A stretch of DNA of 64,000 bases from a virus (IMGVR_UViG_3300034126_000020:192001-256000), one strand, 5' to 3'; positions 5,376 to 64,000 are shown, counted from the first letter of the stretch. Program-made: numbers and translations. Notes: a model not told the origin generated them from the letters alone.

Positions 5376-6241
5376 TGACCGTCCGTCATCGCGACACCCT
5401 GCTCGGTAACGGTTTGGGCTACGGCGAGTATAACAACTCGCCGATGGTCAACTTGGCGATTGGTGGGCAGAACGCCTACCAGTCTGACCTCCGTTACTTC
5501 CACGCCAACACCGACTACGTGCGCCGCAACCTGATCATCAAGGTTCTGCAAGCGCCACGTGGTTTCCAATACCTGGACAACCCAGACGCTTACTACAAAG
5601 CCCTCAAAGGCATTGTAGAGATGCACGCACAGACGTGGGACGGCTTCAACCGTACCCTGACTGTGAACAGCGTCGAAGCTCCGGTGTCGGGTGCTGGCGA
5701 AATGCAACAGACCCCAAGCAACGTGACGCGTCAGCGTTCCGATCCATCGATGACCATCCGTGAGAAGTACGGCCGTCCAGTTCAGCGCTTCTTCGAGAGC
5801 TGGATTACCGAGCTGATCATGGACCCGGACTCGAAGGTGCCTGGGATCTCCACCCGTGTCAACAAGCCTACCGACTTGCTGCCGGACATCTACTCGATGA
5901 GCATCATTGCTTTCGAGCCGGACCCGTCCTTCACCAAGGTTAACTCGGCCTGGCTGATGACCAACATGTACCCAACCACTGCCGGTGATTTCACTGGCCG
6001 CCGTGACAAGACGGCTGATGGTGAAGAGTTGGTGCTGTCGATCCCTTGGACCGGCATGCAGCAAGTGGGTCTGGCCGTCGACCGTTTCGCTCAGCAACTG
6101 CTGGACGCGATGCCGAAGACCGGTACCTCTCCAAACCTGAAGCCGTCGTTCGCGACGGGCGTGGAAGCAGACGTTGCCAAACACAACGTAGGTTTCACCG
6201 AGCAGGTAGCGGACTTCAACCGCACTTACATCAAGCTGTAA
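5375..6241 (+). CDS. Tail tube protein (phiKZ gp30-like)
   Basis: 288 aa, coupled to the sheath stop (TAATG). Family-typical YVRRNLI...APRGF and EPDP...AWL.TNMYP motifs. Confidence 0.8.
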   Translation: MTVRHRDTLLGNGLGYGEYNNSPMVNLAIGGQNAYQSDLRYFHANTDYVRRNLIIKVLQAPRGFQYLDNPDAYYKALKGIVEMHAQTWDGFNRTLTVNSVEAPVSGAGEMQQTPSNVTRQRSDPSMTIREKYGRPVQRFFESWITELIMDPDSKVPGISTRVNKPTDLLPDIYSMSIIAFEPDPSFTKVNSAWLMTNMYPTTAGDFTGRRDKTADGEELVLSIPWTGMQQVGLAVDRFAQQLLDAMPKTGTSPNLKPSFATGVEADVAKHNVGFTEQVADFNRTYIKL

Positions 6242-49677: not shown

Positions 49678-52068
49678 ATGAGTACTGTCCTTCCACAATA
49701 CCCTTTCGATCCGACGGGTGTCGCGGCAACAAACAAGGTGACCGAGACCCAGTCGATTCGTTCGCGGGGTACGTTCGATCACTATTACATCATTCCGCGC
49801 CTCGGTCCGTTCTACGCCACAAGCGTAAAGCTGCGACTGTATCCGCAGGGTGCAAACGTCAACAACCCAGCGTTGGGTACTGACCTTCACGAAGGTGAGC
49901 ACTACAACTTCGGGTATCACTTCGCTTACGCGTCTCATACCATTGGTTTGCCGGTCTACGGCGCCATTACGTTCTACGATCGCAATCTCGAAGGTCAGCT
50001 CCGCATGGAGTACCAGACCATCGGTGACGATTGGGTACTGGATGATCAGGCGTACAGTGAACTCCTGCTTAACGTGGCGTTTAACCCACGCATCGCAAAC
50101 TGGGAACAGGTGGTTGAACTGCCTCGTGAATTCCCGGTGGTCAACCATGACTTCAGCATTGACGACTTTGTCGGCATGTCGGAAGTGGTCGATGAGCTGG
50201 CGGACATTGAGCGAGCATTGCTTCAACAAGGTGTCGGTGGCATCGCAGAACACATCGCCGACAAGTCCAACCCTCACGCTGTCACTAAAGCGCAGGTCGG
50301 ACTGAGCCTGGTGGATAACTTCCCTACTGCTACTGTAGGTGAAGCGACCGCTGCGGTAGCCAATAACCGTTTTATGACGCCTCTGCGAACCAAGCAGTTG
50401 ATCGACGCTGTCGCCACTGCCGCGCTCAATGCGCACATGGCTGACATGAACAACCCACACACCGTGACCAAAGCGCAAGTCGGTCTCGGTAGTGTGCAGA
50501 ACTTTGCCTTGGCCACACAGGCTGAAGCCGAAGCCGGTGCCTCGAACGCCCGTTACATGACTCCCCTGCGGACTCGTGAAGCAATCGAAGCCATCGCAGG
50601 TGCAAAGATCGACGGTCACATTGCGGACAAGAACAACCCTCACGGCACTACCAAAGCGCAGGTAGGTTTGGGTAACGTCATCAACATCGGCATTGCAACC
50701 AACGCGGCTGCTCTGTCCGGTACCGATGACTCAGGTATCATCACCCCTCGTCTGTTGTCGTTGGTGTTGAGTGAAACGGTAGGGTCGGGTGTTACTGACC
50801 ACATCAATAACTTCAACAACCCACACAGCACGACCAAGTCCCAAGTCGGCTTGGGCAGCGTTGAGAACTTCGGTATTGCTACACCTGCCGAAGCTGCTGA
50901 TGCGACTGCCAACAACAAGTACATGACGCCGCTGGCTGTTCGTCAAGCGATCAACGCCTTGGTGGGTGACAGTTCGAATGCTCACGTCAGTGACTTCAAC
51001 AACCCGCACAAAGTGACGGCTGCTCAGGTTGGTACGTACACCGAGCAAGAGATTGACGCTCTGCTGCTGGACAAGTTGGACGTGACTGCCGCGGCAGCTA
51101 ACGCCCTGAAGGTCTACGGCTTGACTCAAGCTCAGTTGGCTGCATGGGTAGGGACTCTGAAGGCAGGCGATACCATCCTGTTCGATGGCAAGACCTACAT
51201 CGATGTCATGAACACCTTCTTGGCCAGTAAGGTTGCTGACACGTCGAAGTTTGACGGGAAGACCTACGCTGAAGTGAAGGCCGACATGGCCGGTCAGGTG
51301 GCGGGCAGCAAGATTCAGTACGCTGTCCCTGAAATGCCTCTGCTGATCGACGGTACCGGTAACGAAGTCCCTGCTCCGGTTCACTGGATCTTGTTGGGTA
51401 GCTTCAAAGCCCCAATCAATGGTCTGCATGCAGACCTGACGTTGATGCTGACTGGTGGCCGTAACGATGAATCCCTCAACGCAGACAAGCAACACACTGC
51501 GCTGTTGGAGATCGGTGCGACCTACGACCAAGAAGGCGGTGTAGGTGACTTCACTCTGCATCCTCGTGGTGCGGCAGTCAAGCACTTGTCGGCTGGTGCG
51601 TACCCAATGACGTTGGGCTTTGTGGTTACAGGTACTAACCTGAACTCGAAGATCGATGTCTACCTCAAAGGGGTGGGTCAGCGCAACCCGATCAACATCA
51701 CTGAGCTGTCGGACAAGCTCTGGATTCCGGCTACGTTCCCATCGTGGGAAGATCTGGCTGACATCGTTACTGTGGAACCTACCGGGATTGTTTACCCGGC
51801 TGTCTTCACTGACGGTACAGCAGACATCGCGGCATTGCAGGCTTTCCAAGCCCGTCGTGATAACCCTCACGTTGTGACCAAAGCTCAAGTAGGGCTGGCA
51901 TCCACGCCGAACTACGCTGCGGCAACCAACGCCCAGGCGGTAACCGGCACTGCAACGAACCTGTTGATGACCCCTGCAACAACCACCGCCAAAGTCGATG
52001 ATTCTATCGGCAAGATGTGCGATGAGTTGATCACGGTCATTGATGCGTCGATGCCGCTGTTCGCTTGA
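49678..52068 (+). CDS. Tail fibre protein with HxxDxxNPHxxTKAQVGL repeats (phiKZ gp145/146-like)
   Basis: N-terminal YPFDPTG baseplate-anchor motif and six repeats. Confidence 0.8.
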   Translation: MSTVLPQYPFDPTGVAATNKVTETQSIRSRGTFDHYYIIPRLGPFYATSVKLRLYPQGANVNNPALGTDLHEGEHYNFGYHFAYASHTIGLPVYGAITFYDRNLEGQLRMEYQTIGDDWVLDDQAYSELLLNVAFNPRIANWEQVVELPREFPVVNHDFSIDDFVGMSEVVDELADIERALLQQGVGGIAEHIADKSNPHAVTKAQVGLSLVDNFPTATVGEATAAVANNRFMTPLRTKQLIDAVATAALNAHMADMNNPHTVTKAQVGLGSVQNFALATQAEAEAGASNARYMTPLRTREAIEAIAGAKIDGHIADKNNPHGTTKAQVGLGNVINIGIATNAAALSGTDDSGIITPRLLSLVLSETVGSGVTDHINNFNNPHSTTKSQVGLGSVENFGIATPAEAADATANNKYMTPLAVRQAINALVGDSSNAHVSDFNNPHKVTAAQVGTYTEQEIDALLLDKLDVTAAAANALKVYGLTQAQLAAWVGTLKAGDTILFDGKTYIDVMNTFLASKVADTSKFDGKTYAEVKADMAGQVAGSKIQYAVPEMPLLIDGTGNEVPAPVHWILLGSFKAPINGLHADLTLMLTGGRNDESLNADKQHTALLEIGATYDQEGGVGDFTLHPRGAAVKHLSAGAYPMTLGFVVTGTNLNSKIDVYLKGVGQRNPINITELSDKLWIPATFPSWEDLADIVTVEPTGIVYPAVFTDGTADIAALQAFQARRDNPHVVTKAQVGLASTPNYAAATNAQAVTGTATNLLMTPATTTAKVDDSIGKMCDELITVIDASMPLFA
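50251..51030 (+). repeat. Five tandem ~61-aa fibre repeats (a sixth lies at ~51850-51920)
   Basis: H-x5-NPH-x2-TK[AS]QVGLG units; first two His starts at 50251 and 50434 (183 nt apart). Confidence 0.85.
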
Positions 52069-52075
52069 TCTTGAG

Positions 52076-52109
52076 ACACGCTGCGTCTAACGGCGTAGCG
52101 TGTTGTTTT
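52076..52109 (+). terminator. Rho-independent terminator / attenuator between the fibre genes
   Basis: ACACGCTGCGTC-TAAC-GGCGTAGCGTGT followed by TGTTTT. Confidence 0.6.
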
Positions 52110-52138
52110 CGAAACTATTCGGATGATGGAGTTTCTCC

Positions 52139-53584
52139 ATGAGTGTACCACCGATTATCCAGTACCCTCTTGACCTAGACGGTACGTCACTGACGAACAA
52201 GATTGTCGGTGAGCGACGGGAAATCAGTACAAACACGGCTCGCGCGTTTGTTCCCAAGGCAGGTCCTTTCTACACCAGTTCGTTTGTCATCATCAACGCA
52301 GACACCGGGGTTCCCTTGGTGCCGGTTGACGACTACGTGCTGGCCCAACCGTTTTCTCAGGCTTCCTTGCGAAGCGGTAAAGACGTGCAGTGCGCTGTGG
52401 TCCTTAAAGTGCAAGCCCCTATCACGGTGATCATGGATTACCAAGTGGTGGGTGGTGAGTACTCCTGGAACCTGAAGGCGCTGGCTGACTTGATCGAACA
52501 GGTCAACCTCGATGAACGCCCTATCAAATGGGGTTCCATCATCGGACGTCCTACGGCGTATCCGCCGGCTCCTCACATCCACGACATCGGCGATACATAC
52601 GGCTGGGAATACGTGGTGTGGCAACTGGAGCGAATCACCAACGCGATCTTGGTCGGTGACGAAGCGTCTCACGATGAACTGCGTCAACAGATGCAATTCA
52701 TTCGGGATCAACTGCAAGCGAACATCGATGCAGTGGACCTGAAGATCGACAACCACCTGAACGATTTCAATAACCCTCACAACACCACGAAAGCTCAAGT
52801 GGGTCTGGGGTCTGTTGAGAACTATCCGGTGGCATCGAACGCTGAGGCTCTGGCGGGTGTCGTTGGTAACCGTTACATGACGCCTACGCTGGTGTCGATT
52901 CTGGCCAACCGTATCTCTCAGGAGATCACGGATGCTCACGAAGCCAAGAAGAACAACCCTCACGCCGTTACAAAGGCACAGGTTGGTCTGGGCAGCGTAG
53001 ACAACTTCGCCACGGCTTCGCAAGCCCAGGCAGAAGCCGGTACAGCCCCTGATGTGTTCATGACACCTCAGCGCACGTACCAAGCGATCATGGTGTTCGC
53101 AGGCAACAAGATCAACCAGCACGTTGCTGACGTCAATAACCCACACCAGACCACCAAGGCGCAAGTCGGTCTCGGTTTGGTTGACAACTTCCAGACCGCG
53201 TCGGTGGCTGAAGCTCAGCAAGGTATCCTGAACGATCGCTTCATGACACCTGCTCGTACCAAGGCGGCTATTGATGCCATGGTCGGCAACGTGATCAACC
53301 AGCACATCTCGAACTTCAACAATCCGCACAACACGACCAAAGCGCAAGTGGGGTTGGGGAACATCCCGAACAACATCACTCGTTCTCGTGGGTTGAACTC
53401 CGACGATTACCTGCTGACCGCTGGCGGCATCTTCGATCACGTGAACTCTGCGGATCACGATGCTCGTTACGCACCCAAGAACACCCCGGGTGTCGACTGC
53501 TCTGTTCACTGGAACGGTTCGGCGGCCTACGTGTGGGGCGGCGGTGCTTGGCGTCAAGTGTGGCCACCGCTGTGGCAAGATTGA
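52139..53584 (+). CDS. Second tail fibre paralogue with four NNPH repeats
   Basis: YPLDLDGTSLTNKI N-terminus paralogous to the upstream fibre; Trp-rich C-terminus WRQVWPPLWQD. Confidence 0.8.
   Translation: MSVPPIIQYPLDLDGTSLTNKIVGERREISTNTARAFVPKAGPFYTSSFVIINADTGVPLVPVDDYVLAQPFSQASLRSGKDVQCAVVLKVQAPITVIMDYQVVGGEYSWNLKALADLIEQVNLDERPIKWGSIIGRPTAYPPAPHIHDIGDTYGWEYVVWQLERITNAILVGDEASHDELRQQMQFIRDQLQANIDAVDLKIDNHLNDFNNPHNTTKAQVGLGSVENYPVASNAEALAGVVGNRYMTPTLVSILANRISQEITDAHEAKKNNPHAVTKAQVGLGSVDNFATASQAQAEAGTAPDVFMTPQRTYQAIMVFAGNKINQHVADVNNPHQTTKAQVGLGLVDNFQTASVAEAQQGILNDRFMTPARTKAAIDAMVGNVINQHISNFNNPHNTTKAQVGLGNIPNNITRSRGLNSDDYLLTAGGIFDHVNSADHDARYAPKNTPGVDCSVHWNGSAAYVWGGGAWRQVWPPLWQD
52754..53375 (+). 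repeat. Four tandem ~61-aa fibre repeats
   Basis: NNPHNTTKAQVGLG, NNPHAVTKAQVGLG, NNPHQTTKAQVGLG, NNPHNTTKAQVGLG. Confidence 0.85.
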
Positions 53585-53608: not shown

Positions 53609-54115
53609 ATGTTTCAACGGCTGGATAACCTGTTCGCTGAGATCAGTGAAGAACTGCTGGACCTTGACGTCCTGATGATGAGTCCTTTTGTGTACGAGCA
53701 GGGCTTGGTGAAGTTTATCAAGAACGGCGGTAGTCATGACGTATTCACTATTTCCGATTACCTTGAGATTGACGACAAGCCAGTCAAGGTAGAAGGCATG
53801 GAACGCCTCAACGGAACCATGTGGAAAGTCTGTAAGCGGTTGGCAGATCACTTCGGCCATGAAGGCCCGGTGACCTGTCACCTGTTTATATCCCCTAAAG
53901 ACGGGGTGAGTTTCCCGATGCACACTGACCTGGATGATGTGGTTATTCACATGGTCACAGGACAAAAGACTTTCGAGTCAACGGACGGGTCGATGGACCT
54001 TGTAGCCGGTGACTCCATTTACATCCCGAGAGGCACGAAGCATCGTGCCATCAACACTGACAGTTCCCTTATGCTGAGTTTTGGCTTGGAACTCTTCACG
54101 GAAGCCAAACTGTGA
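53609..54115 (+). CDS. JmjC/cupin 2-oxoglutarate-Fe(II) oxygenase (Cupin_4/RoxA-like)
   Basis: SFPMHTDLDDV (HxD), GQKTF, GDSIYIPRGTKH (distal His). Confidence 0.85.
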   Translation: MFQRLDNLFAEISEELLDLDVLMMSPFVYEQGLVKFIKNGGSHDVFTISDYLEIDDKPVKVEGMERLNGTMWKVCKRLADHFGHEGPVTCHLFISPKDGVSFPMHTDLDDVVIHMVTGQKTFESTDGSMDLVAGDSIYIPRGTKHRAINTDSSLMLSFGLELFTEAKL

Positions 54116-55149
54116 ATCAAAAGACCATTTACGTCAAGACCACCGGTACTTGCAACCTGAACTGTCAGCACTGTTTCACCAACGGGAAGAACGGGGATAA
54201 GACCCACTTCAACCCAGAGGCCACAGTGGCCTGGATCAAAGACTTTATGTCTCGGTATCCGGAAGACACCCACTACCACATCGAGTTCCATGGTGGGGAG
54301 CCTTTCCTCGTGCCCTTGGAGAAGATGCAGATCGTAGCGGATGCGTTCATCGAACAAGAGAACGTGTCCATGTGTGCCAACAGCAACTTGACCTTCAAGA
54401 TGACTGATGCGCACATCGACTTCATCAAGCATTATTTTGGTGGTTACATCGGGACCAGTTGGGATCATTGGATTCGCTGGAGCAACGAGAAGCAGGTGAA
54501 CCTGTGGAAGAGCAATCTTCGGTTGCTGAAGTCCCATGGCATTGACATTGGTCTCAAGGTGTCTGTCAGTCGTCCTCTGATTGAGACCACGCCTGATTGG
54601 TTCATTGATCAGATGGAAGCCATTGCGGTGGACGATGTGTCGCTTGAGCGTCTGACCCACGACGGCAGTGCTGAGGTCAACCTCGACATCTTCCCCAACA
54701 ACGAGGCTCAGGATAACTGGTACCTCGCGCTTTATTTGCGTTACAAAGAAAGGAACCCGCGCGTAAAGATTCGCACCTTGGACATCATCGAGCAAAAGCT
54801 CAAGATGAAAATGGTAAGAGTCGACACCAACTGCCGGAACTGTGAGCAGAACCTTGTGACGATGAACCCAGATGGGTCGTTGTCGGGTTGCCCTAACGCA
54901 GCCACCAAGCTTCACCATGCCAAGTTAGAGCAGGGCGTCGATGCGTTCCTCAATTCCGACAGTCGGATTGATGAGATCGTAAGCGAAGTGACGCGGAGTG
55001 ATACGTGCATTACGTGCGACGTGTACGATCTATGTGGGGGTGATTGCCATCGTCTCCCATGGCAGAAAGGTCGCTGTGGTGGTCTGAAAAACACACTGCG
55101 TTATTTGTCTGGTCGTGCTCAACAGTCCAACCTGATTATAAAGGTGTGA
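54112..55149 (+). CDS. Radical SAM/SPASM protein 1
   Basis: CNLNCQHC (CxxxCxxC), FHGGEP, C-terminal C..C...GCP...CxxC....CGGDC...C. Confidence 0.92.
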   Translation: MNQKTIYVKTTGTCNLNCQHCFTNGKNGDKTHFNPEATVAWIKDFMSRYPEDTHYHIEFHGGEPFLVPLEKMQIVADAFIEQENVSMCANSNLTFKMTDAHIDFIKHYFGGYIGTSWDHWIRWSNEKQVNLWKSNLRLLKSHGIDIGLKVSVSRPLIETTPDWFIDQMEAIAVDDVSLERLTHDGSAEVNLDIFPNNEAQDNWYLALYLRYKERNPRVKIRTLDIIEQKLKMKMVRVDTNCRNCEQNLVTMNPDGSLSGCPNAATKLHHAKLEQGVDAFLNSDSRIDEIVSEVTRSDTCITCDVYDLCGGDCHRLPWQKGRCGGLKNTLRYLSGRAQQSNLIIKV

Positions 55150-55150
55150 T

Positions 55151-55687
55151 ATGGCCGAAGTAATTACTCGGAACCGGATGGCCGTCAACGCCAACTCCAT
55201 TCTGAAGAACAACATGAACAGCGGAATCAGTTGGGGGACGAATAACTATCCTGCCAACTCCATTCCCGGCTGGTTCGCTGGTACGACTGCTGGGGTAGAC
55301 TTCACTGCCACTGTAGCGCACTTCCAAGCCGGTAAACCCAGTGCGTCTCAGACAGTAGCTGTGCTGCGTAACATCGCAAACGTCTTCGGTGGCGTGCGGA
55401 CTACGCGGATCGTCATCTACTACAACAACAACGGAAACCTGCAAGTCCAGTACGATGGAACTGCGGTGGCCAACACTATATACGGTGTAGGTGATTTCGC
55501 CTCCCAAGCCAACCTCGGTGGCCTTGGCGTCAACACTCCTTTGTCCTTGAACATGTTCAACGCTGCCTGTCTGGCGCTTTGGAACGTGTACGTGGCCAAC
55601 TGCCGTAACCAAGTCCTTACCCTGACCAACACCGTTTGCCACACGAGCTGCCACGTAAGTTGCCACTCGTCCCGCGGTCGTCGGTAA
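55151..55687 (+). CDS. Asn/Gly-rich protein with C-terminal CHxS repeat (CHTSCHVSCHSSRGRR); candidate radical-SAM substrate
   Basis: 178 aa; starts 2 nt after the rSAM1 stop; triple C-H-x-S at the extreme C-terminus. Confidence 0.75.
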   Translation: MAEVITRNRMAVNANSILKNNMNSGISWGTNNYPANSIPGWFAGTTAGVDFTATVAHFQAGKPSASQTVAVLRNIANVFGGVRTTRIVIYYNNNGNLQVQYDGTAVANTIYGVGDFASQANLGGLGVNTPLSLNMFNAACLALWNVYVANCRNQVLTLTNTVCHTSCHVSCHSSRGRR

Positions 55688-55704: not shown

Positions 55705-56514
55705 GTGGACAAGACTACCGAAGTGGAAGTCAAGAAAGAGCCTAACAAGCTGCCAGTACCGCGCTTTGCACCCATTGAAGGTGAGCTGGTTGTCATTGAG
55801 ACCACCGTGCCTGTCCCCATCATGGTCATGCGTCGTAAGTTCACCGAGAACATCAAGTTCATCGTGGACTACGACAACAGCCGTCACAAAGGCAAGGTGT
55901 TCATCACGTACATCACCAACATGGGTGTTGAATGTGAACTGCGGTTCGGGTCCGTTGAGTCTAAACTGGAACTGGTGAAAGAGTATCTTCACGTCACCTC
56001 CATGGTGGACCTGCCGCAATTGGAAGACGTCGTGATCAATCTGTTGCTGGCAGCGACGGGCAAGCCTTACCACTTGGACTTCAATCCTCTGGACTTCATT
56101 CTGGAGAACGAAGAGATCCTTCAGGTATGGATGCGGAACTGCTGCATGGTCCCGACGTACGCCCTGCACAGTTACCCGCCCACTGAGGACCAGGTCAAGA
56201 ACTACGAAGAGATCCCAGGTGATGACCTGAGCGGTATCAACTTCGTGCACTTGGCCAGCCACATCTTGTTCCCGATGTTGATTTCTGACGTCCCTGAAGA
56301 GCACTGGTGCTGGAACAAGACGTTCTTCAAGGAGTACTGCTTCGGTGGACACAACCTGTTCTACTACACGCAGTCGGAGAACAACCCGTTCTTCATGGCG
56401 TTGCTGGTGATCAGTGAACCGGAAGCAGTGGGTGATCTGGGGATTGCAGCGGCTACCATCCTGCAAGAAAACCACACTTACCTAAAGGGCCTCGAACATG
56501 TACCATCTGCTTAA
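55705..56514 (+). CDS. Hypothetical protein of the radical SAM cluster
   Basis: GTG start with GAGGAG RBS; stop overlaps the next gene. Confidence 0.7.
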   Translation: MDKTTEVEVKKEPNKLPVPRFAPIEGELVVIETTVPVPIMVMRRKFTENIKFIVDYDNSRHKGKVFITYITNMGVECELRFGSVESKLELVKEYLHVTSMVDLPQLEDVVINLLLAATGKPYHLDFNPLDFILENEEILQVWMRNCCMVPTYALHSYPPTEDQVKNYEEIPGDDLSGINFVHLASHILFPMLISDVPEEHWCWNKTFFKEYCFGGHNLFYYTQSENNPFFMALLVISEPEAVGDLGIAAATILQENHTYLKGLEHVPSA

Positions 56515-57553
56515 CCAGACGTACGTCGATTCTGAAACACGGATTGACCGTACAGCAAATACGATCACCATCTCGCCACAGGTGGGGTTCGAATACATCC
56601 CTCAGCCTAACGAGAAGGTCGGGACTCACTTGGGTTACGGGACCAGTCTGGATGCTTTCACGCCAGAACAGTTCCATGACCTGATGGTGGCGGCTAATGA
56701 GCTGAACGAGAAGGTTGTCATCTACAGCGATGGCCGGACCTACGCTCGCATGTACGCCATGTTGGTCAAAGCGGTGTTCCCGAACATCGACTTCGACAAC
56801 TTCTGCTGGTTCATGCTCTGCAAGAAAGCCACGTTCAACTCGATCATCGTGGCCATGGGCGAACCCCGGGTTGACGTGCTGTCGAGCGTGGTGATCAACC
56901 GGGCTGTCTGCAAAGAACTGTTCGAAGCTGAAGAGCCTCTTCAAGAGACCTTCAATGAACTGGTCGCTGACGACGCTGATGCACTGTCGCTGGAATGGCA
57001 CATTGCTCGGTTGCGGACTGAAGGCATTTCGGGAAAGATCCCAAAGGCAACCAAGACCATCTTGCGCCGCATCGCTCTGTCGAACGCGCATGATGCCATG
57101 GATGTCTGGGCCCGTCACCTGACCCGTCCTCAGTTCTGGGACATGGCCGGTGCTGACATGGACACTCTGCTCAATGCACCGTCCGTGTTTGAAGGGTGCT
57201 TGGGTCTGCCTCACTTGGCCTCCCAACAGTTGCTGCGTCCTGGCCTGTACGATTTCCGTCCGAACGACACGTGGATCAAAGGCATGCTGCGTGAAGCAGT
57301 GGACCTGATGCACCGTCTTGAAGATGGTTCGTCGGCTGAACGTGCCGCTGAGATCCTGCGTCTGCTGGAAGATGACCGCAACATGGTCGAGGCAGCTAAC
57401 TGTCTGGACCGGGTCAACCGGATGTTCAATGGCGAGATGCGTATTGCCCTGGCCATGCGTGACACCGGCAAGTACGACGAGAACCTCATTCGTCACATCC
57501 TGAACATGGAGCTGTCTGTTCTCAAGGCAGCCTTGGAAGGGGCGACCTGGTAA
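56498..57553 (+). CDS. Hypothetical protein of the radical SAM cluster (351 aa)
   Basis: Overlaps the upstream gene; TAATG coupling to rSAM2. Confidence 0.75.
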   Translation: MYHLLNQTYVDSETRIDRTANTITISPQVGFEYIPQPNEKVGTHLGYGTSLDAFTPEQFHDLMVAANELNEKVVIYSDGRTYARMYAMLVKAVFPNIDFDNFCWFMLCKKATFNSIIVAMGEPRVDVLSSVVINRAVCKELFEAEEPLQETFNELVADDADALSLEWHIARLRTEGISGKIPKATKTILRRIALSNAHDAMDVWARHLTRPQFWDMAGADMDTLLNAPSVFEGCLGLPHLASQQLLRPGLYDFRPNDTWIKGMLREAVDLMHRLEDGSSAERAAEILRLLEDDRNMVEAANCLDRVNRMFNGEMRIALAMRDTGKYDENLIRHILNMELSVLKAALEGATW

Positions 57554-58548
57554 TGGAACTGATCCCTGTAGTGAACATACTCAGGGATAAGAAGGGTCGC
57601 CGTAAGGAGGCCCATCTGATCCTGTTCGAATGGTGCAACCTGCGGTGTTCCTTCTGCCATCAGGACCACGATTCCAAAGTGGGCTTCGATGCGGTTGACA
57701 TGATCCGTAAAGCACAAACGCTGATCGACGAAGTGGACAGTGAATCGGAGATCGTGATCAACATCACCGGTGGTGAACTGTTCATGGACGATGTACCGGA
57801 CTGGATGTTCGGTTACTACCTGACGATTGGCAGAATGCTGCTCGAGAACTTCCCTCATGCCAAATTGGTCTGGGGGACGAACTTGATCTTCAAGGATGTC
57901 TGGCGAGTGGCTCGTTTGATCCACATGCTGAGACCGTATGGTAAAGTCGTTCTGGCTACGTCGTATGATCCTGCTGGGCGGTTCAATGAGATGCAGCGTA
58001 TTCGCTTCTTCGAAGTGCTTGAAGAAGTTGCTCCTCTGGTTGAAACGGTCAACGTGGTGATCACCAAGCAGAACATCGAGTCCTTCCTTGCGGGCCGGGA
58101 AGGTCGGGAAGTGGCTTGGCTCTGTGAGCAGTTCGACGTGTACTTCGATCACTACATCCCTAGCCAGATGTACGAGTACATTCAGCCGGATGAAGAGTTG
58201 ATCAGCGCCTTGTACCTGCACCTGAACAAGAAGTACCCCAACTCCTACCCGATCAAGGACTGGAAGGCTAACGTGATCAATGAGACCACGTGCCGTTCTA
58301 CCAAGATCATCAACAAGGACGGCGTTGTCAGTACTTGTTGGTCTGAGGCAGGCAAGGGTGCGATCTTGGATGAGGCTGAAGGCTTGCGGGCTAAGGACGA
58401 AGCAGAGATTGCGTTCGTGGAACATTACGAGTGCTTCTCCTGTGAGTACTACACCCGGTGTGGCTTGCGGTGCTTCCTCCATGACACTGTCTTGGGTGAG
58501 AAGTCCAAGGTGTGCAGCATCAAGACCATGTTCGACGAAATCTTGTGA
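57553..58548 (+). CDS. Radical SAM/SPASM protein 2
   Basis: CNLRCSFC, ITGGE, C-terminal TC...TC...CFSC....CGLRC...C. Confidence 0.92.
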   Translation: MELIPVVNILRDKKGRRKEAHLILFEWCNLRCSFCHQDHDSKVGFDAVDMIRKAQTLIDEVDSESEIVINITGGELFMDDVPDWMFGYYLTIGRMLLENFPHAKLVWGTNLIFKDVWRVARLIHMLRPYGKVVLATSYDPAGRFNEMQRIRFFEVLEEVAPLVETVNVVITKQNIESFLAGREGREVAWLCEQFDVYFDHYIPSQMYEYIQPDEELISALYLHLNKKYPNSYPIKDWKANVINETTCRSTKIINKDGVVSTCWSEAGKGAILDEAEGLRAKDEAEIAFVEHYECFSCEYYTRCGLRCFLHDTVLGEKSKVCSIKTMFDEIL

Positions 58549-58592: not shown

Positions 58593-59615
58593 TTACAGGC
58601 CGGCCTTCTTGATAAGGTTCAGCAGCAGTTCAGAGTGCAGCGCTTGAGCGAGGCCGATTGGGACGCCCTTCATACCAAACTGGTTGCAGTATTCGAAGAT
58701 GCCCCACTTCTCATCTTCGGTGATAAACAGATCCACTGACGACAATGGACCAATCACCGTCAGTACCAGTTCACGCAGGCCTTCAAGATCAGCGCCGCCC
58801 AGTACGTCATTGATAGCGCAGATGTCGTTACCCTTGGCGCTGTTGGTTTCAGAGCCCGTGGCTTGAGCCAGACCGGTGTTGTCCTTGTCACGGATGTTGC
58901 GACGTTGGCAGTACGCGATCTCACCGCCTTGACCTGTCAGGAGACGGTATTCTAACTTGATGCCGGGTACATAGTCCTGAATGCAGAAGCCCTGAGACTG
59001 GATGGCTGTCAGACCTTCGTTCTCGAACTTCTCAGCAGAGGTTGCATACTTGAACGACGGGTCGTACTTATGCAGCTCAGGCAAGACGTCAGCCAGTTGA
59101 GTACGGCCTGTCTTTAGGCCATCAAGAACGTCCACCACAGCAGTCAATGGAATCTTGTCCGGGTCAATGAGGAACTGACCAATACCACGAGCCCCGTCCA
59201 GCGGCTTGACCACGACGCGGTTGTCCGGGTTCACCAATTGACTGAAGCCGTGCAGTTGTGGGTTGTGATGCATCGTCAGCGGATAGAAGTTCTTGAACAG
59301 GTGTTCGTTTTCTTCATCGCTGTTCAGTTCCACCGCAGCCAAGAGACGCAGTTGTTGCTCGACCTTGTTGTACCGCTTGATGGTGTGCATCCGACGGGGA
59401 GGGAGCAGGTTCTGCATGTCCATGCCGTCGATCTTCAAGGAGCCGTCATTGACGACCACGTCGAAGTTGAAGCGGGCATGTCCACCGTTGATGCTCATCT
59501 GTGGATCACGGTGGAAGTAGACCTCGTAGTTACCGTTATCCAGTGACATCCCTTGACTCAGTACATCCCAATTGTTCATGGCATGGGAGGCCACTACGAC
59601 ATTGATACGCTTCAT
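58593..59615 (-). CDS. ATP-grasp (RimK-like) ligase
   Basis: VVVKPLDGARGIG, IQDYVPG...EYRL, SVDLF...GIFEYCNQFG. Confidence 0.75.
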   Translation of the reverse strand: MKRINVVVASHAMNNWDVLSQGMSLDNGNYEVYFHRDPQMSINGGHARFNFDVVVNDGSLKIDGMDMQNLLPPRRMHTIKRYNKVEQQLRLLAAVELNSDEENEHLFKNFYPLTMHHNPQLHGFSQLVNPDNRVVVKPLDGARGIGQFLIDPDKIPLTAVVDVLDGLKTGRTQLADVLPELHKYDPSFKYATSAEKFENEGLTAIQSQGFCIQDYVPGIKLEYRLLTGQGGEIAYCQRRNIRDKDNTGLAQATGSETNSAKGNDICAINDVLGGADLEGLRELVLTVIGPLSSVDLFITEDEKWGIFEYCNQFGMKGVPIGLAQALHSELLLNLIKKAGL

Positions 59616-59876: not shown

Positions 59877-60095
59877 ATGACCGATTCCATTCTGCCAATA
59901 CGTCGCCGTAAACCACTTGTGCCTCGTTTTCCACGTACGCTCGGTGATAGCGATTGGCTGTTGAAGAAGTTAAGAGAAGCGAACAGTCCAGAGAACGAAC
60001 AGTTCCGTCGTGACTACCTCGGTCAATGGACCGTACAGCCTGCTGATAAGGAAAAGCCCGATGGACCTGATCGTCAAACCGACCGTCAACTGTAA
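59877..60095 (+). CDS. Small hypothetical protein (72 aa)
   Basis: Starts 4 nt after the previous stop; overlaps the rSAM3 start. Confidence 0.45.
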   Translation: MTDSILPIRRRKPLVPRFPRTLGDSDWLLKKLREANSPENEQFRRDYLGQWTVQPADKEKPDGPDRQTDRQL

Positions 60096-61146
60096 CTTCA
60101 AGTGCACGTTCTGCTCGAGCACTCATCTCTCTGAAGACGCCACCGACATTGTTGAGTTGGCCCAGATCGAGGAGTTCATCCAGCGGTTCCACACGCACAC
60201 GATCATCATCAACGGCGGTGATCCTCTGATGATGCCTCCAGAGTACTACTGGAAGCTGATCGAGATCCTCGACAAGCATGGCAGTGAGGCCAGCATTAGT
60301 TTCACCTCTAACCTGTGGCCGTTCTACAAGAAGCCAGAGTTATGGGAGGAGTTGCTCAAACACCCCCGTCTGGGCGTCACAACGTCCTTCCAGTACGGCG
60401 ACAAGCGTTTGAAGGGCGATGGTACAGTCTTCAGCGAAGAGGACTTCTGGAACGTCTCAGACATGTTCCTGGAGCGCATCGGTTACCGCCCGGGTTTCAT
60501 TGCGGTGATCGACAAGGACAATGAACACACAGTCCTTGATACGGTGCGTCTGGCTCAGAAGATGGACGTCGAAGCCAAGATCAACCATGTGGTCGCTTCG
60601 GGCCCCGTGGTTGTGAAGAAAGGGATTGCCATGGGCAGTATCGACAACTTCTTTACGCAGGCTGACATCTACGGCCACTACATCGAGATCTACAACGCCG
60701 GCTTGATGGAGTGGGAATACAACACCAAGCAGATGGCGAAGAAGCTCAAGCATCAGCACACGACCTGTCCATTGGCGCGTGAGTGTGATTCGGGCATCCG
60801 TACACTGCAACCGGGTGGTGGTTACTTCTCCTGTGGTTCTTTTGCAGATGACGGGGCGTACCCGATCGACTTCAAAACCGAGATGGACGGTGGGATGGTC
60901 TATCCATTGCAGAACCAGCCGGAACTGCAAAGCATGAAAGACTCGTGCTACATCTGTCCGATGTTCAACATCTGTAATGGGTGTCGGAAGACGATCTCTG
61001 ACACCAAGCGCATGGGGCTGACTGAACAGCACTGTCGCAAGATGAAGAGTCAAGCTGCCCAGATCATCGAAATCAATGGCATGTCCGCTCACCTAGAGCC
61101 GACGCCGTACGAAGATGAATCCCTTCCCTTGATTGCACGAGGTTGA
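60061..61146 (+). CDS. Radical SAM/SPASM protein 3
   Basis: MDLIVKPTVNCNFKCTFC, INGGDP, C-terminal CP....C...SC...CxxC....CNGC...C. Confidence 0.92.
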   Translation: MDLIVKPTVNCNFKCTFCSSTHLSEDATDIVELAQIEEFIQRFHTHTIIINGGDPLMMPPEYYWKLIEILDKHGSEASISFTSNLWPFYKKPELWEELLKHPRLGVTTSFQYGDKRLKGDGTVFSEEDFWNVSDMFLERIGYRPGFIAVIDKDNEHTVLDTVRLAQKMDVEAKINHVVASGPVVVKKGIAMGSIDNFFTQADIYGHYIEIYNAGLMEWEYNTKQMAKKLKHQHTTCPLARECDSGIRTLQPGGGYFSCGSFADDGAYPIDFKTEMDGGMVYPLQNQPELQSMKDSCYICPMFNICNGCRKTISDTKRMGLTEQHCRKMKSQAAQIIEINGMSAHLEPTPYEDESLPLIARG

Positions 61147-61147
61147 C

Positions 61148-61363
61148 ATGTCCTTTCCTATCTTGGATCAAATGGCGTTCTTTCCACCCGGTCATGAAGT
61201 CAAGCTTCAGATCCCTGAGGTCTTGAAGAAGATCGTCCTCAAGCGCTGCGTTGAAAGCGTTGATGACTTCCTCGACGTGGTCAGTGATTCCCGGGGTCTT
61301 AAACTGAGCCCTTATCAACGAGATTTCTACAAATGCCTAAGTCAAGAATCAACGTCTCGCTGA
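61148..61363 (+). CDS. Small hypothetical protein (71 aa) in the radical SAM cluster
   Basis: Starts 1 nt after the rSAM3 stop; overlaps rSAM4. Confidence 0.6.
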   Translation: MSFPILDQMAFFPPGHEVKLQIPEVLKKIVLKRCVESVDDFLDVVSDSRGLKLSPYQRDFYKCLSQESTSR

Positions 61364-62265
61364 ACCCGTGGTACTACTGCAACTTCCGGTGTGACTTCTG
61401 TTACCTCACCGAGCAACAGTTGAGCGACAAGCAGTTCATCCCGCTGGACGTCTTTGAACAACGCATCGACGAACTGCTGGAGCACTTCGAGATCGGTCAC
61501 ATCGACATCTACGGTGGGGAAGTCTTCCTGTTGCCTCAGCAGTACCTGATGGACATCAAAGACATCCTGCACATGCGGGGCATTGATGACATCGTGGTCG
61601 TCACCAACCTGTCGCATGTACCGGACATCGCTCATGACCCAGCGTTCGACATCTCGGTGTCGTATGACTTCGGGGCTCGTGAGAAGCACGACCAGGTGTT
61701 GCAGAACATCTTCCAACTCAGCAACAAGTTCAACATCCTGACGTTGGCCGGCCGTACGTTCTTGGATCTGGTGACCCCAGACGAATACGTGCAGACCATG
61801 AACGGGTTCCCACATCTGAAAGGCTGTGAGATCAAACCGTACAGTTCTAACCAAGCCAACGATCAGGACGTGTCGTTTAAGGAATTCGAAGAGTTCGTCT
61901 GGGCTGTCATCAAACACCCCGAACGTAACTTCTATTTCGAGAACGAGACTCAGGTCAAGGAAGCGGTAGACGGTAGCCGCAATGCTTTCTCTGATGACCA
62001 CATCTACATCACTCCAACCGGCGATTACGCCGTACTGGAGTTTGACAAGAATGACCGCGAGTTCTTCCTGACAGTAGACGGCATCGAAGGATACCTCGAC
62101 TGGTGCGGGAAAGAGTATGAGCGAGTAGCGGACAATCCGTTCTGTGCATCGTGTACGTTCCACGGCGGGTGCCTCTCTGAGCACTTGCGGGAAGTCACAA
62201 CCCTTGAGAACTCCTGTAACGGGTTCCGGGGTCTCTTGTTAAAGTGGGTGGAGCATGGAACTTAA
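61333..62265 (+). CDS. Radical SAM protein 4 (SPASM/twitch-like C-terminus)
   Basis: CNFRCDFC, IYGGE, C-terminal CASC....CLSEH...SC. Confidence 0.9.
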   Translation: MPKSRINVSLNPWYYCNFRCDFCYLTEQQLSDKQFIPLDVFEQRIDELLEHFEIGHIDIYGGEVFLLPQQYLMDIKDILHMRGIDDIVVVTNLSHVPDIAHDPAFDISVSYDFGAREKHDQVLQNIFQLSNKFNILTLAGRTFLDLVTPDEYVQTMNGFPHLKGCEIKPYSSNQANDQDVSFKEFEEFVWAVIKHPERNFYFENETQVKEAVDGSRNAFSDDHIYITPTGDYAVLEFDKNDREFFLTVDGIEGYLDWCGKEYERVADNPFCASCTFHGGCLSEHLREVTTLENSCNGFRGLLLKWVEHGT

Positions 62266-63313
62266 ACACGTAGAGCATCGGCAGCGATTGGAGATCACCC
62301 TCGACATCTTCCGAGGGTGTCAACACCATTGTTCAGGTTGCATGATTGATAAACAGTTGGGGGGAGACGTCGATGACATCCCTCAGTTGGCAATCATGAT
62401 CAAAGAGATGGTTGATGCAGGGTATGTTGCGTTTGACATGGGGATCGGTCCCACTGACTACATGTCTTCTGATAACACCTCTGACGTCATGACCCATCCG
62501 GTCTTTCAAGAAATGGCTCAGTGGTTTCATCAGGTCACGTTCAATGCTGCCTTCCTCGAGAAGGACATGGACAAGTACAAGACCATGTGCGAAGAGATCG
62601 ACCAAGCCATTCCGGGTAAGGCCGTTCGCTTCCTGATGCCTGCGGCTCCGCACTTCTTCAAGAGCGAGAAGTTCGGGGACATGATCAGTGAGAAGCTTGC
62701 GTTCGTCAAAGAGCACCTGAAGGTCGCTTACTTGAACGAGGCAGGCTTCGTGGTCAACTGCACTCACGAGACGGTGGGTGAAGACTTCGATGACTTGATG
62801 AAGAATGGGTTCGCTGTGGACTTCCCGGTGGACAAGGACGACATCTTGAACATCCCCTATGGTCGTCTCAAGGTCAAAGACCTGATGACCGCTCAGCGGA
62901 TCACCCGGATGTCTCACCGCATCACGCAGTTCTACTCAGGACTGAATGGCACGGATGAACGTCGTCGCAATCCTGACCTTTGTTACCACACCGGGACGAT
63001 GGTCAACCTGTTGTACACGGCAGGCAAGCTGTATTGGGTGCCTTTCCTTAAAGACGACTGTCCGTTCCTTGAGGACGAGTTCGTCGTTCCTCGCCCCTGG
63101 TCTATGGATAACCTTCTGAACACGCGTCAGAAGGCCATGGAGCGCGCTATGGAGTATCTGAAGGACACTCCGTGCATGAGTTGCGTCTACATGAGTAGTT
63201 GCAGCGAAAAAGGGATCATCAACATCATGGAACGGATGCAAATCCGTGAATGCCTCGTGGGGTTGCAGTATGTCGACAATGATTCAGAGCAGAGCGTTCA
63301 ACCTAACGCTTGA
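62255..63313 (+). CDS. Divergent radical SAM-like protein 5
   Basis: CQHHCSGC; no GGE motif (IGPTD instead); C-terminal CMSC....C...C. Confidence 0.75.
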   Translation: MELKHVEHRQRLEITLDIFRGCQHHCSGCMIDKQLGGDVDDIPQLAIMIKEMVDAGYVAFDMGIGPTDYMSSDNTSDVMTHPVFQEMAQWFHQVTFNAAFLEKDMDKYKTMCEEIDQAIPGKAVRFLMPAAPHFFKSEKFGDMISEKLAFVKEHLKVAYLNEAGFVVNCTHETVGEDFDDLMKNGFAVDFPVDKDDILNIPYGRLKVKDLMTAQRITRMSHRITQFYSGLNGTDERRRNPDLCYHTGTMVNLLYTAGKLYWVPFLKDDCPFLEDEFVVPRPWSMDNLLNTRQKAMERAMEYLKDTPCMSCVYMSSCSEKGIINIMERMQIRECLVGLQYVDNDSEQSVQPNA

Positions 63314-64000
63314 GATTCTGCAAGGCTGTAAGTTCCAATGCGTCGGTTGCATGGTGGACAAGGACTTTGATCCAGGTCCCTTCAACAAAGACCGTCGAGA
63401 ACTGTTGGACATGGTCGATGACATGAAAGCTGCTGGCTATCGCCTGCGAGAGTTCACTGTCGGGCCGGTGGACGTCATTGCCTCCAAGGCAGGTGTGGAC
63501 ATCCTTGACCATCCGTTGATCTTCCAACTGGCTCAGCGCTACGATTCGATGGTGCTGCCGTTGGCTCTGTTGACGGACGACGGGTTGGAAGAGCTGTGTG
63601 AGAAGGTCAACTTCTTGATGAAGGGTAAATCCTTCACCATCGCTACACCGTTCCCGCTCAAGAGCACGTACAACCCCAAGCATCAGGACCTGATCAACCG
63701 CCGTGTGCAGTTCATCATTGACCACTTGCCGGATGTGAAGTTCGAGTTGCTTTACTTGACCGTGAACATGACGGGTGACTCCATTGACCAGTTCAGTGTC
63801 GAGACCAATCGTGACATCCATCAGCTGGACTTTGGGGTCAAACGCTTGGTGGAGTACGTGTTCCCTCATGTGCGCAAAGGGTTCGACGACCTGCTCAACC
63901 GTTCTGCCTTCCTGAGGGCCTTTGGTAAGTTCTGTGACGTGATTCACGATTGCAAGGACACCGAGTTCACCAGGTACCTGATCAAGCCTCTGGCGGACTC
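63279..64000 (+). CDS. Divergent radical SAM-like protein 6 (truncated by the window end)
   Basis: Not in the track. Manual translation MIQSRAFNLTLEILQGCKFQCVGCMVDKDFDPG...VGPVD..., open to 64000; paralogue of protein 5. Confidence 0.75.
   Translation, partial: MIQSRAFNLTLEILQGCKFQCVGCMVDKDFDPGPFNKDRRELLDMVDDMKAAGYRLREFTVGPVDVIASKAGVDILDHPLIFQLAQRYDSMVLPLALLTDDGLEELCEKVNFLMKGKSFTIATPFPLKSTYNPKHQDLINRRVQFIIDHLPDVKFELLYLTVNMTGDSIDQFSVETNRDIHQLDFGVKRLVEYVFPHVRKGFDDLLNRSAFLRAFGKFCDVIHDCKDTEFTRYLIKPLAD

Follow-up and report, generated by a model that had tools for sequence, protein, structure and literature searches.

We found that P0001, a protein of 178 residues encoded on the plus strand at positions 55151 to 55687 of a 64,000-nucleotide stretch of viral DNA (IMGVR_UViG_3300034126_000020:192001-256000; here, the window), belongs to a large phage protein family whose occurrence is beyond chance and which is not described in the literature we found. 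The protein ends in a repeated Cys-His tail, and its gene directly follows that of rSAM1 (54112 to 55149, plus strand), a radical S-adenosylmethionine (radical-SAM)/SPASM enzyme and putative tail maturase. There is an even chance that P0001 is a fiber-associated virion protein whose tail is stapled by rSAM1 and whose Arg end is hydroxylated by the JmjC oxygenase encoded upstream. The P0001 gene is an open reading frame (ORF) of 178 codons plus a stop, started by ATG and preceded by a ribosome-binding site (AAAGGTG). Its last 16 residues (55637 to 55684, plus strand) form the tail, so that the protein ends NTV-CHTS-CHVS-CHSS-RGRR. ORF and translation thus agree with an earlier note on this DNA, which described a 178-residue product with three C-H-x-S units and an RGRR end. 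The note called these units perfect, which holds for P0001 itself but not for the family, where the unit is C-H-x-[S/N/A]; its description of the protein as Asn/Gly/Thr-rich is roughly right (N 24, T 16, and G 16 of 178 residues), yet A (20) and V (18) are also high. The spacing from rSAM1, given there as 2 nucleotides, is 1 nucleotide: the rSAM1 TGA ends at 55149, and the two genes are translationally coupled. No other CHxxCH run was found by a six-frame regular-expression scan of the window, and the phage genome, complete at 276,810 bp and bounded by direct terminal repeats, contains the P0001 gene once.

Homologues of P0001 were collected by a word-indexed search, which returned 82 clusters at 90% identity, all of 174 to 193 residues, and by a profile search covering 1.84 billion representatives, which returned 699 clusters (50% identity) at E values no higher than 1e-3, 327 of them no higher than 1e-10. 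In 81 of the 82 clusters, CHxxCHxxCHxx is followed by RGRR or a close variant (RSRR, GRGRR); in the exception (P0063), the third unit is C-N. Conservation in the body includes invariant P34, R86, and D102 (alignment A1) and several blocks, among them NSGISWGTNNYP, GWF.G.T.G, IR..RIVIY, and YDGTAVA. We quantified conservation of the tail across 300 distinct C-termini, all ending R-x-R-R. At each of the three units Cys was kept in 295 to 298 and His in 294 to 296, which puts conservation of all six Cys and His positions, and likewise of the final R-x-R-R, at 98% or more. The position directly after His (+2 from Cys) varies freely. At +3, unit 1 has S in 273 and N in 19 of the 300 tails, unit 2 has S in 185 and N in 100, and unit 3 has S in 212, A in 54, and N in 32. 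In two tails the third-unit His is replaced by Tyr, which is likewise aromatic. The codons for Cys (TGT/TGC, 60/39), His (CAT/CAC, 52/47), and Arg (all six used) vary synonymously, indicating that selection acts on the protein; the same variation rules out that the nucleotide sequence itself is selected, for instance as an RNA element or as the ribosome-binding site of the next gene.

The number of C-H units ranges from 2 to 15 across the family, recalling multi-core precursor peptides. Two members of 227 and 234 residues (L021 and L030) carry 13 to 15 units in cassettes with NVPV spacers and end in RGRR, and a subfamily has a different ending, in which four C-H units are followed by G-D-x-P-G and a Gly-rich end. 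The main rival explanation for such tails is an unmodified metal site: in a trimer, the three C-H pairs of each chain would coordinate Zn, Fe, or Cu along the axis, much as iron and zinc are held at the His-x-His sites of T4 gp37 and gp12, and the radical-SAM neighbors would act elsewhere, for example, on the fibers or on a small molecule. We consider this alternative rather unlikely. The invariant residues are indeed Cys and His, metal-stapled fiber tips are known in T4, and 2 to 15 units would just lengthen a metal-stapled needle; however, metal binding would leave the constraint to S, N, or A at +3 unexplained, and His-to-Tyr substitutions occur.

The association between the tail gene and rSAM1 is reciprocal, in line with the co-occurrence proposed in the earlier note. 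A protein-seeded search recovered about 80 IMG/VR loci (25 to 96% identity to P0001), and in these the order oxygenase, rSAM1, tail protein, hypA, and, further on, rSAM2 was kept wherever sequence was present. Conversely, among the best 80 loci found with the rSAM1 alignment, an ORF with a C-H tail lay directly downstream in 78, the other 2 being contig ends. Among cultured-phage records with an rSAM1 homologue, the tail gene adjoins in 15 of 15; these phages are pPa_SNUABM_DT01, RSL2, RSF1, FLC4-4C/5C/11C, FLC6, FLC8, SURPRISE13, RsoM3USA, Atu_ph07, and Phosso. Hundreds of jumbo phages carry the module. Their habitats are soil, freshwater, and sea, and they span lineages that differ greatly (Chiangmaivirus, Polybotosvirus, and uncultured phages of marine and soil origin); the cultured hosts are Pseudomonas, Ralstonia, Burkholderia, Agrobacterium, and Sinorhizobium. 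The sole close cultured relative is Pseudomonas phage pPa_SNUABM_DT01, in which the cluster is syntenic: a central spike gene is followed by two fiber genes, a cupin, a radical-SAM gene, the tail protein (56% identical to P0001, ending CHTSCHTSCHSARGRR), two genes of no recognized function, and then five more radical-SAM genes and 2-oxoglutarate (2OG) oxygenases. A tblastn search of cultured phages with a marine family member (P0070) gave no match. The two-way, one-to-one linkage with rSAM1 would be unexplained if the tail were an unmodified metal site.

Several loci depart from the usual spacing or gene content. In four loci found with rSAM1 (L120, L122, L136, and L151), the C-H tail lies 1.3 to 1.6 kb past the end of rSAM1, a spacing that implies either tail proteins expanded by large insertions to about 450 to 550 residues or else an additional gene in between. 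In Atu_ph07 gp170 (296 residues) and L065 (257 residues), the body likewise contains insertions, of smaller size. At a marine locus (L031, positions 3965 to 5964 of IMGVR_UViG_3300038712_000076), a gene for the thymidylate synthase ThyX takes the place of the cupin gene upstream of rSAM1, and an ORF of 100 residues with a hydrophobic N-terminus is inserted after rSAM1, before the tail gene; even so, the tail there ends in R-G-R-R. Several family members come from compost metagenomes, and the phage of the window may be part of a group treated in bioRxiv 10.1101/2024.08.29.610337.

The sequence of rSAM1 carries the CX3CX2C motif at residues 14 to 21, a GGEP motif, and eight SPASM cysteines (C241, C244, C260, C299, C302, C308, C312, and C322, including CX2CX5CX3C) that are invariant in 12 orthologues, and it passes the SPASM model TIGR04085 (29.2 bits against a cutoff of 27). 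Its best NCBIfam matches, all weak (38 to 49 bits) and full-length, are PapB, YhhB, AmcB, DarE, DynA, and anSME. The top match is PapB (E = 5.9e-13; 48.8 bits against a cutoff of 340), and the other specific models were likewise missed: YhhB (48.4 against 445), AmcB (44.4 against 425), FxsB (37.1 against 370), DarE (41.0 against 650), DynA (39.9 against 450), and the whole-protein maturases anSME (37.8 against 349) and QhpD (25.2 against 453). P0001 does not belong to the His-Xaa-Ser (Hxs) or SCIFF systems, which the earlier note had invoked, all scores being far below the cutoffs (rSAM1, 27.3 bits against 370 for HxsB; rSAM2 and rSAM3, 20.6 and 27.1 bits against 267.9 for HxsC). Because every curated cutoff was missed by far, the system falls outside the Hxs, SCIFF/ranthipeptide, triceptide, daropeptide, or anSME families. 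No match to rSAM1 was found among PDB sequences, and no relative was found in prokaryote genome contigs. With its full SPASM domain and with peptide cross-linking maturases as its best weak matches, rSAM1 resembles a cross-linking maturase.

The start of rSAM1 is overlapped by a gene for a JmjC/cupin Fe(II) oxygenase (53609 to 54115, plus strand; Pfam JmjC_2, E = 6.5e-9; Cupin_2, E = 9.2e-8), and across all loci collected in this analysis the type of oxygenase follows the type of tail end. Tails ending in R-x-R-R were found with a JmjC cupin ahead of rSAM1 at 143 loci and with neither oxygenase at 8. At all 6 G-D-x-P-G loci, which represent three lineages, a prolyl-4-hydroxylase (P4H)-type enzyme (2OG-FeII_Oxy_3) stands in place of the JmjC cupin, and no locus combines either tail end with the opposite oxygenase. 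The C-H core and rSAM1 are constant across both types. Such co-variation would be expected from a division of labor in which the C-H units are the target of rSAM1 and the terminal residues that of the oxygenase. Arg or His is the hydroxylation target of JmjC_2/Cupin_4 enzymes, and Pro that of P4H enzymes; the JmjC oxygenase possibly acts, then, on the terminal R-x-R-R. A tail that merely binds metal would give no reason for its end to co-vary with the oxygenase.

The fold of P0001 was predicted with AlphaFold2 from the family alignment (predicted local distance difference test [pLDDT] score, 89.5; predicted template modeling score, 0.82). The model consists of a folded domain of about 160 residues, with residues 1 to 163 forming a confident alpha/beta domain, followed by the C-terminal tail. 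The last two 10-residue blocks have low pLDDT values (68 and 51), for which reason the tail is predicted to be flexible and exposed. We found no structure of known function, solved or predicted, that resembles P0001: the best Foldseek match in the PDB had an E value of 0.25, the best hit of a wide VIA-align search a Z score of 4.8, the ESM Atlas gave template modeling scores of 0.33 or less, AFDB clusters yielded two unnamed entries only (probably family members), and the P0001 profile matched nothing among PDB sequences below E = 0.87. No Pfam or NCBIfam model matches the protein, and phrog_35144 matches its tail only.

One relative of the G-D-x-P-G subfamily (L028/P0196) continues, from SDERLK, into a C-terminal Peptidase_S74 intramolecular chaperone (E = 1.5e-11); this domain is absent from P0001 by Pfam scan, and among the relatives only L028/P0196 has one. 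Peptidase_S74 chaperones are used by trimeric fibers and spikes, so their presence here argues that the family is trimeric and fiber-like, and P0001 probably forms a trimer that serves the tail-fiber apparatus as an accessory or tip component. A trimerization chaperone directly after the C-H units is also what an unmodified, metal-coordinating trimer would call for; against this, the monomer model shows the tail disordered, and residues i and i+1 of a beta-strand face opposite sides, so that adjacent C-H pairs are unlike H-x-H.

To place the family in the phage particle, we turned to published proteomics of phage Atu_ph07. The gene beside its rSAM1 homologue encodes a protein of 296 residues and 31.89 kDa that ends FCHSSCHASCHNSRSRR and is related to the family by hhalign (98% probability over the last 72 residues). 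This protein, gp170, is listed among the particle proteins (31.89 kDa; 8 unique peptides; 35.16% coverage; PMC6102473 Table S5); as the calculated masses of gp176 and gp177 also match those listed, the gp numbering is secure. The neighboring gp168, gp169, gp171, and gp172, that is, radical-SAM enzymes, hypA (gp169), and the cupin, are absent from the particle list (PMC6102473 Table S5). Since gp170 is present at full size rather than as a clipped peptide, its body is retained, in accord with the earlier suggestion of a full-size protein rather than a short precursor. Together with the relative fused to Peptidase_S74, these data agree with the same note's view of P0001 as a structural protein: it very probably is one, with particle detection known from the homologue gp170 only.

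On the Atu_ph07 gel, gp170 was found in bands 1 to 9 and was most abundant in band 1, the top band, where proteins that peak are mostly of 75 to 139 kDa; other proteins of about 30 kDa peak in bands 7 and 8 (PMC6102473 Table S5). The particle form of gp170 is, then, resistant to sodium dodecyl sulfate (SDS) and heat. Running as a high-mass species would suit a metal-bound trimer. It would also suit a tail that serves as a covalent anchor, joined by rSAM1 or by oxidation to another virion protein or to neighboring subunits, given that a 31.9-kDa protein peaks with proteins of 87 to 139 kDa after 95°C in SDS. In addition, the gene always follows fiber genes, and the basic R-x-R-R end could dock on an acidic partner. 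We regard such cross-linking between proteins as improbable: no reducing agent is listed for the sample buffer of the gel, and the band is accounted for just as well by disulfides or by a trimer stable in SDS; no partner was identified; and the SPASM maturases known to us make intramolecular links.

Alternatively, the tail may be consumed as a scaffold for a small cofactor or metabolite, as PqqA and MftA are, or the protein may assist the radical-SAM enzymes as a helper in Fe-S chemistry or electron transfer; finding it in particles would then reflect contamination. The enzyme complement of the cluster, with as many as six radical-SAM members, several oxygenases, and an ATP-grasp protein, exceeds what one tail seems to need, and the Atu_ph07 list has clear contaminants. 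However, the body of about 160 residues is conserved and well folded, the fusion of a relative to a fiber-type S74 chaperone argues for a structural role, gp170 reached 35% coverage in particles from which all of the enzymes were absent, and the annotated module genes include no recognized peptidase. We therefore consider a scaffold or helper role very improbable.

Returning to stapling by rSAM1, we propose that the tail, (C-H-x-[S/N/A])3-R-x-R-R, would be a dedicated substrate of rSAM1, an enzyme that would not itself be part of the virion; the modifying enzymes would be produced by the infected cell and excluded from the particle. Most likely, rSAM1 would install one short-range cross-link per C-H-x-S unit. 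This could be a thioether between the sulfur of Cys and the residue at +3, as in ranthipeptides or sactipeptides, or a bond that ties the His ring to the beta-carbon two positions further along, as in triceptides or dynobactin. Constraint on Cys, on His, and on S/N/A at +3 fits both options, each of them named in the earlier note, and the replacement of His by Tyr in a few tails leans slightly toward the aromatic cross-link. The C-H-x-S unit could also define a cross-link of a new type, such as one that depends on Cys and His together. The upstream JmjC oxygenase would probably hydroxylate the terminal Arg cluster. What results would be a rigid tail that withstands proteases and SDS, possibly retains the ability to bind metal, and remains on the full-size protein in the particle; metal binding and covalent modification could occur together. 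That rSAM1 modifies the P0001 tail at all appears moderately probable, and either specific chemistry, thioether or His link, is at best doubtful.

Several observations weigh against this proposal. No member of the family has an observed modification, and as Cys and His are classic metal ligands, conservation alone would fit an unmodified metal site. Adjacency is not fully specific to rSAM1, since the whole block of fiber, radical-SAM, and oxygenase genes is inherited together, and the co-variation of tail end and oxygenase may reflect a single evolutionary event. rSAM1 reaches the cutoff of no curated specific family. Pfam and NCBIfam scans found no match to PqqD or to a RiPP recognition element (RRE), the domain that binds the precursors of peptides that are ribosomally synthesized and then modified post-translationally (RiPPs), and rSAM1 lacks an N-terminal extension, leaving no room for an RRE because the radical-SAM motif starts at residue 14. 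Finally, the Atu_ph07 particles were purified with polyethylene glycol only, the protein list includes ribonucleotide reductase and topoisomerase, and the gel loading buffer lists no reductant, so that the top-band signal of gp170 could be due to disulfides (PMC6102473).

Among characterized systems, the P0001 system would work most like pairs of a SPASM maturase and a repeat substrate. In triceptides (XyeB/YhhB, FxsB, GrrM/OscB, AmcB) and daropeptides (DarE, DynA), a SPASM enzyme is encoded beside a substrate with repeated aromatic-X-X units, here H-x-[S/N/A] three times; these families are among the best matches of rSAM1 (E = 6e-13 to 2e-10), and in the case of DynA the bond runs from a His ring to the beta-carbon of the second residue after it. 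In contrast to their substrates, P0001 has a period of 4 with an invariant Cys before each His, and it is a 178-residue, very probable virion protein with no sign of leader removal and no RRE found. Ranthipeptides/SCIFF (CteA-CteB, PapA-PapB) and sactipeptides likewise have Cys at a spacing of about four residues, flanks of Ser, Thr, or Asn, and a SPASM maturase, and a ranthipeptide-like thioether from Cys to +3 would fit the P0001 tail. The invariant His is not typical of these peptides, however, and P0001 would belong to a phage particle rather than being a secreted peptide; the SCIFF model did not match it. The His-Xaa-Ser system (HxsA with HxsB, HxsC, and HxsD) also places H-x-S units beside radical-SAM enzymes, but HxsA repeats have a period of 3 and no Cys, whereas those of P0001 have a period of 4 with Cys. 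The HxsA model gave no match to P0001 (NCBIfam, 0 families), and no equivalent of HxsD was recognized.

The nearest precedents for modification of a protein that keeps its body are anSME, which acts on sulfatases, and QhpD, which makes Cys thioethers inside the subunit QhpC: in both, as proposed here, an enzyme without an RRE acts on a tail or loop belonging to a whole protein. The anSME model gave a weak full-length match to rSAM1 (E = 1.1e-9), and the sulfatase motif C/S-x-P/A-x-R is not kept in the tail, where unit 3 reads C-H-x-x-R but its +2 residue is G in 97, S in 95, C in 40, N in 26, and A in 11 of 300. Unlike the targets of these enzymes, P0001 is very probably a virus structural protein. 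The layout of P0001 is not that of a strict RiPP (leader and core, RRE, and release of the core), there being no RRE match and the gp170 body being retained; since anSME and QhpD already act on whole proteins, the "unusual RiPP architecture" of the earlier note was overstated. The H-x-H tips of T4 gp37 and gp12 and the S74 fibers share with P0001 a probable virion fiber context and repeated metal-ligand residues near the C-terminus. P0001 differs from the T4 tips in having adjacent C-H pairs, in lacking sequence or fold similarity, and in being tied to a radical-SAM gene.

The remaining genes of the module, all on the plus strand unless noted, were examined in the window. Directly upstream are two tail-fiber genes encoding 796 residues (49678 to 52068) and 481 residues (52139 to 53584; fiber B), which are syntenic with the pPa_SNUABM_DT01 genes after the central spike; a fiber homologue, RSL2 ORF065, is annotated as a virion structural protein. 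The fiber proteins share the repeat NPH..TKAQVGLG.V.N in nine copies (50284 to 53336), mostly exactly 183 nucleotides (61 residues) apart, and NPH..TKAQVGLG also occurs in the fibers of L003, L025, L030, L079, and L087. An obligate link between the module and these repeat fibers was rejected, as the repeat is absent at Atu_ph07, RSL2, and marine loci that have the module. Fiber B contains a His-x-His motif, PHIHD (HLH in L079), which recalls the metal sites of T4 fibers, and its C-terminal end, W-R-x-V-W-P-P-x-W-Q, is conserved and might be where the Cys-His-tail protein docks.

Downstream of P0001, hypA (55705 to 56514; 269 residues; GTG start with ribosome-binding site GAGGAG; phrog_20767, E = 4e-33) adjoins the tail gene in nearly all loci. 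Its AlphaFold2 model (pLDDT, 89.6) combines a small three-stranded alpha/beta unit with a helical domain and had no match in the PDB or Swiss-Prot AFDB, the best wide VIA hit having a Z score of 5.0 over 54 residues only. The next ORF, hypB (56498 to 57553; 351 residues), overlaps both hypA and rSAM2, is present in about half of the related loci, and has no Pfam, NCBIfam, or PHROG match; a protein-atlas feature search gave no usable match for either hypA or hypB. rSAM2 (57553 to 58548; Pfam Radical_SAM, E = 2.7e-4; phrog_1802, E = 9e-33) belongs to the same translationally coupled unit and is conserved downstream in most loci. The cluster is then interrupted by a minus-strand ATP-grasp gene (58593 to 59615), which has counterparts in the same place in a few close relatives only (L006, L018, and L020) and is outside the conserved core. 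Beyond it lie four radical-SAM paralogues, rSAM3 to rSAM6 (60010 to 63998), recognized as ORFs with CX3CX2C, of which rSAM3 and rSAM4 have Pfam and PHROG matches and rSAM6 is cut by the window end; all four are syntenic in pPa_SNUABM_DT01. The best conserved gene of the cluster is rSAM3 (60010 to 61146): at distant loci its identity is 48 to 61%, compared to about 40% for rSAM1 and about 30% for the tail protein, and the smallest versions of the module (L028, L079, and L087) keep only two radical-SAM genes, one of which is rSAM3.

To our knowledge, cross-linking by radical-SAM/SPASM enzymes is known from small secreted peptides and a few enzyme cofactors and subunits, not from virus particles. 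Our search of the literature on phage radical-SAM enzymes in connection with tail fibers, SPASM, or RiPPs found nothing describing this protein, motif, or role; the genome papers of pPa_SNUABM_DT01, FLC6, S13, and RP12/RP31 merely list radical-SAM genes, and published genome papers assign such phage genes a vague role in "DNA repair" or "metabolism." There is a realistic chance that P0001 and its relatives are the first virus structural proteins matured by a radical-SAM enzyme. Modification of the tail, if it occurs as proposed, would account for the two to six radical-SAM genes that these phages carry, would introduce a new post-translational step into tail-fiber assembly, and would provide chemists with a short, portable pair of motif and enzyme. 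More broadly, and somewhat short of an even chance on the comparisons made here, the family may represent a widespread and so far undescribed class of phage particle proteins stapled covalently by phage radical-SAM and Fe(II)/2OG enzymes, in which RiPP-type chemistry would serve to build virus structure.

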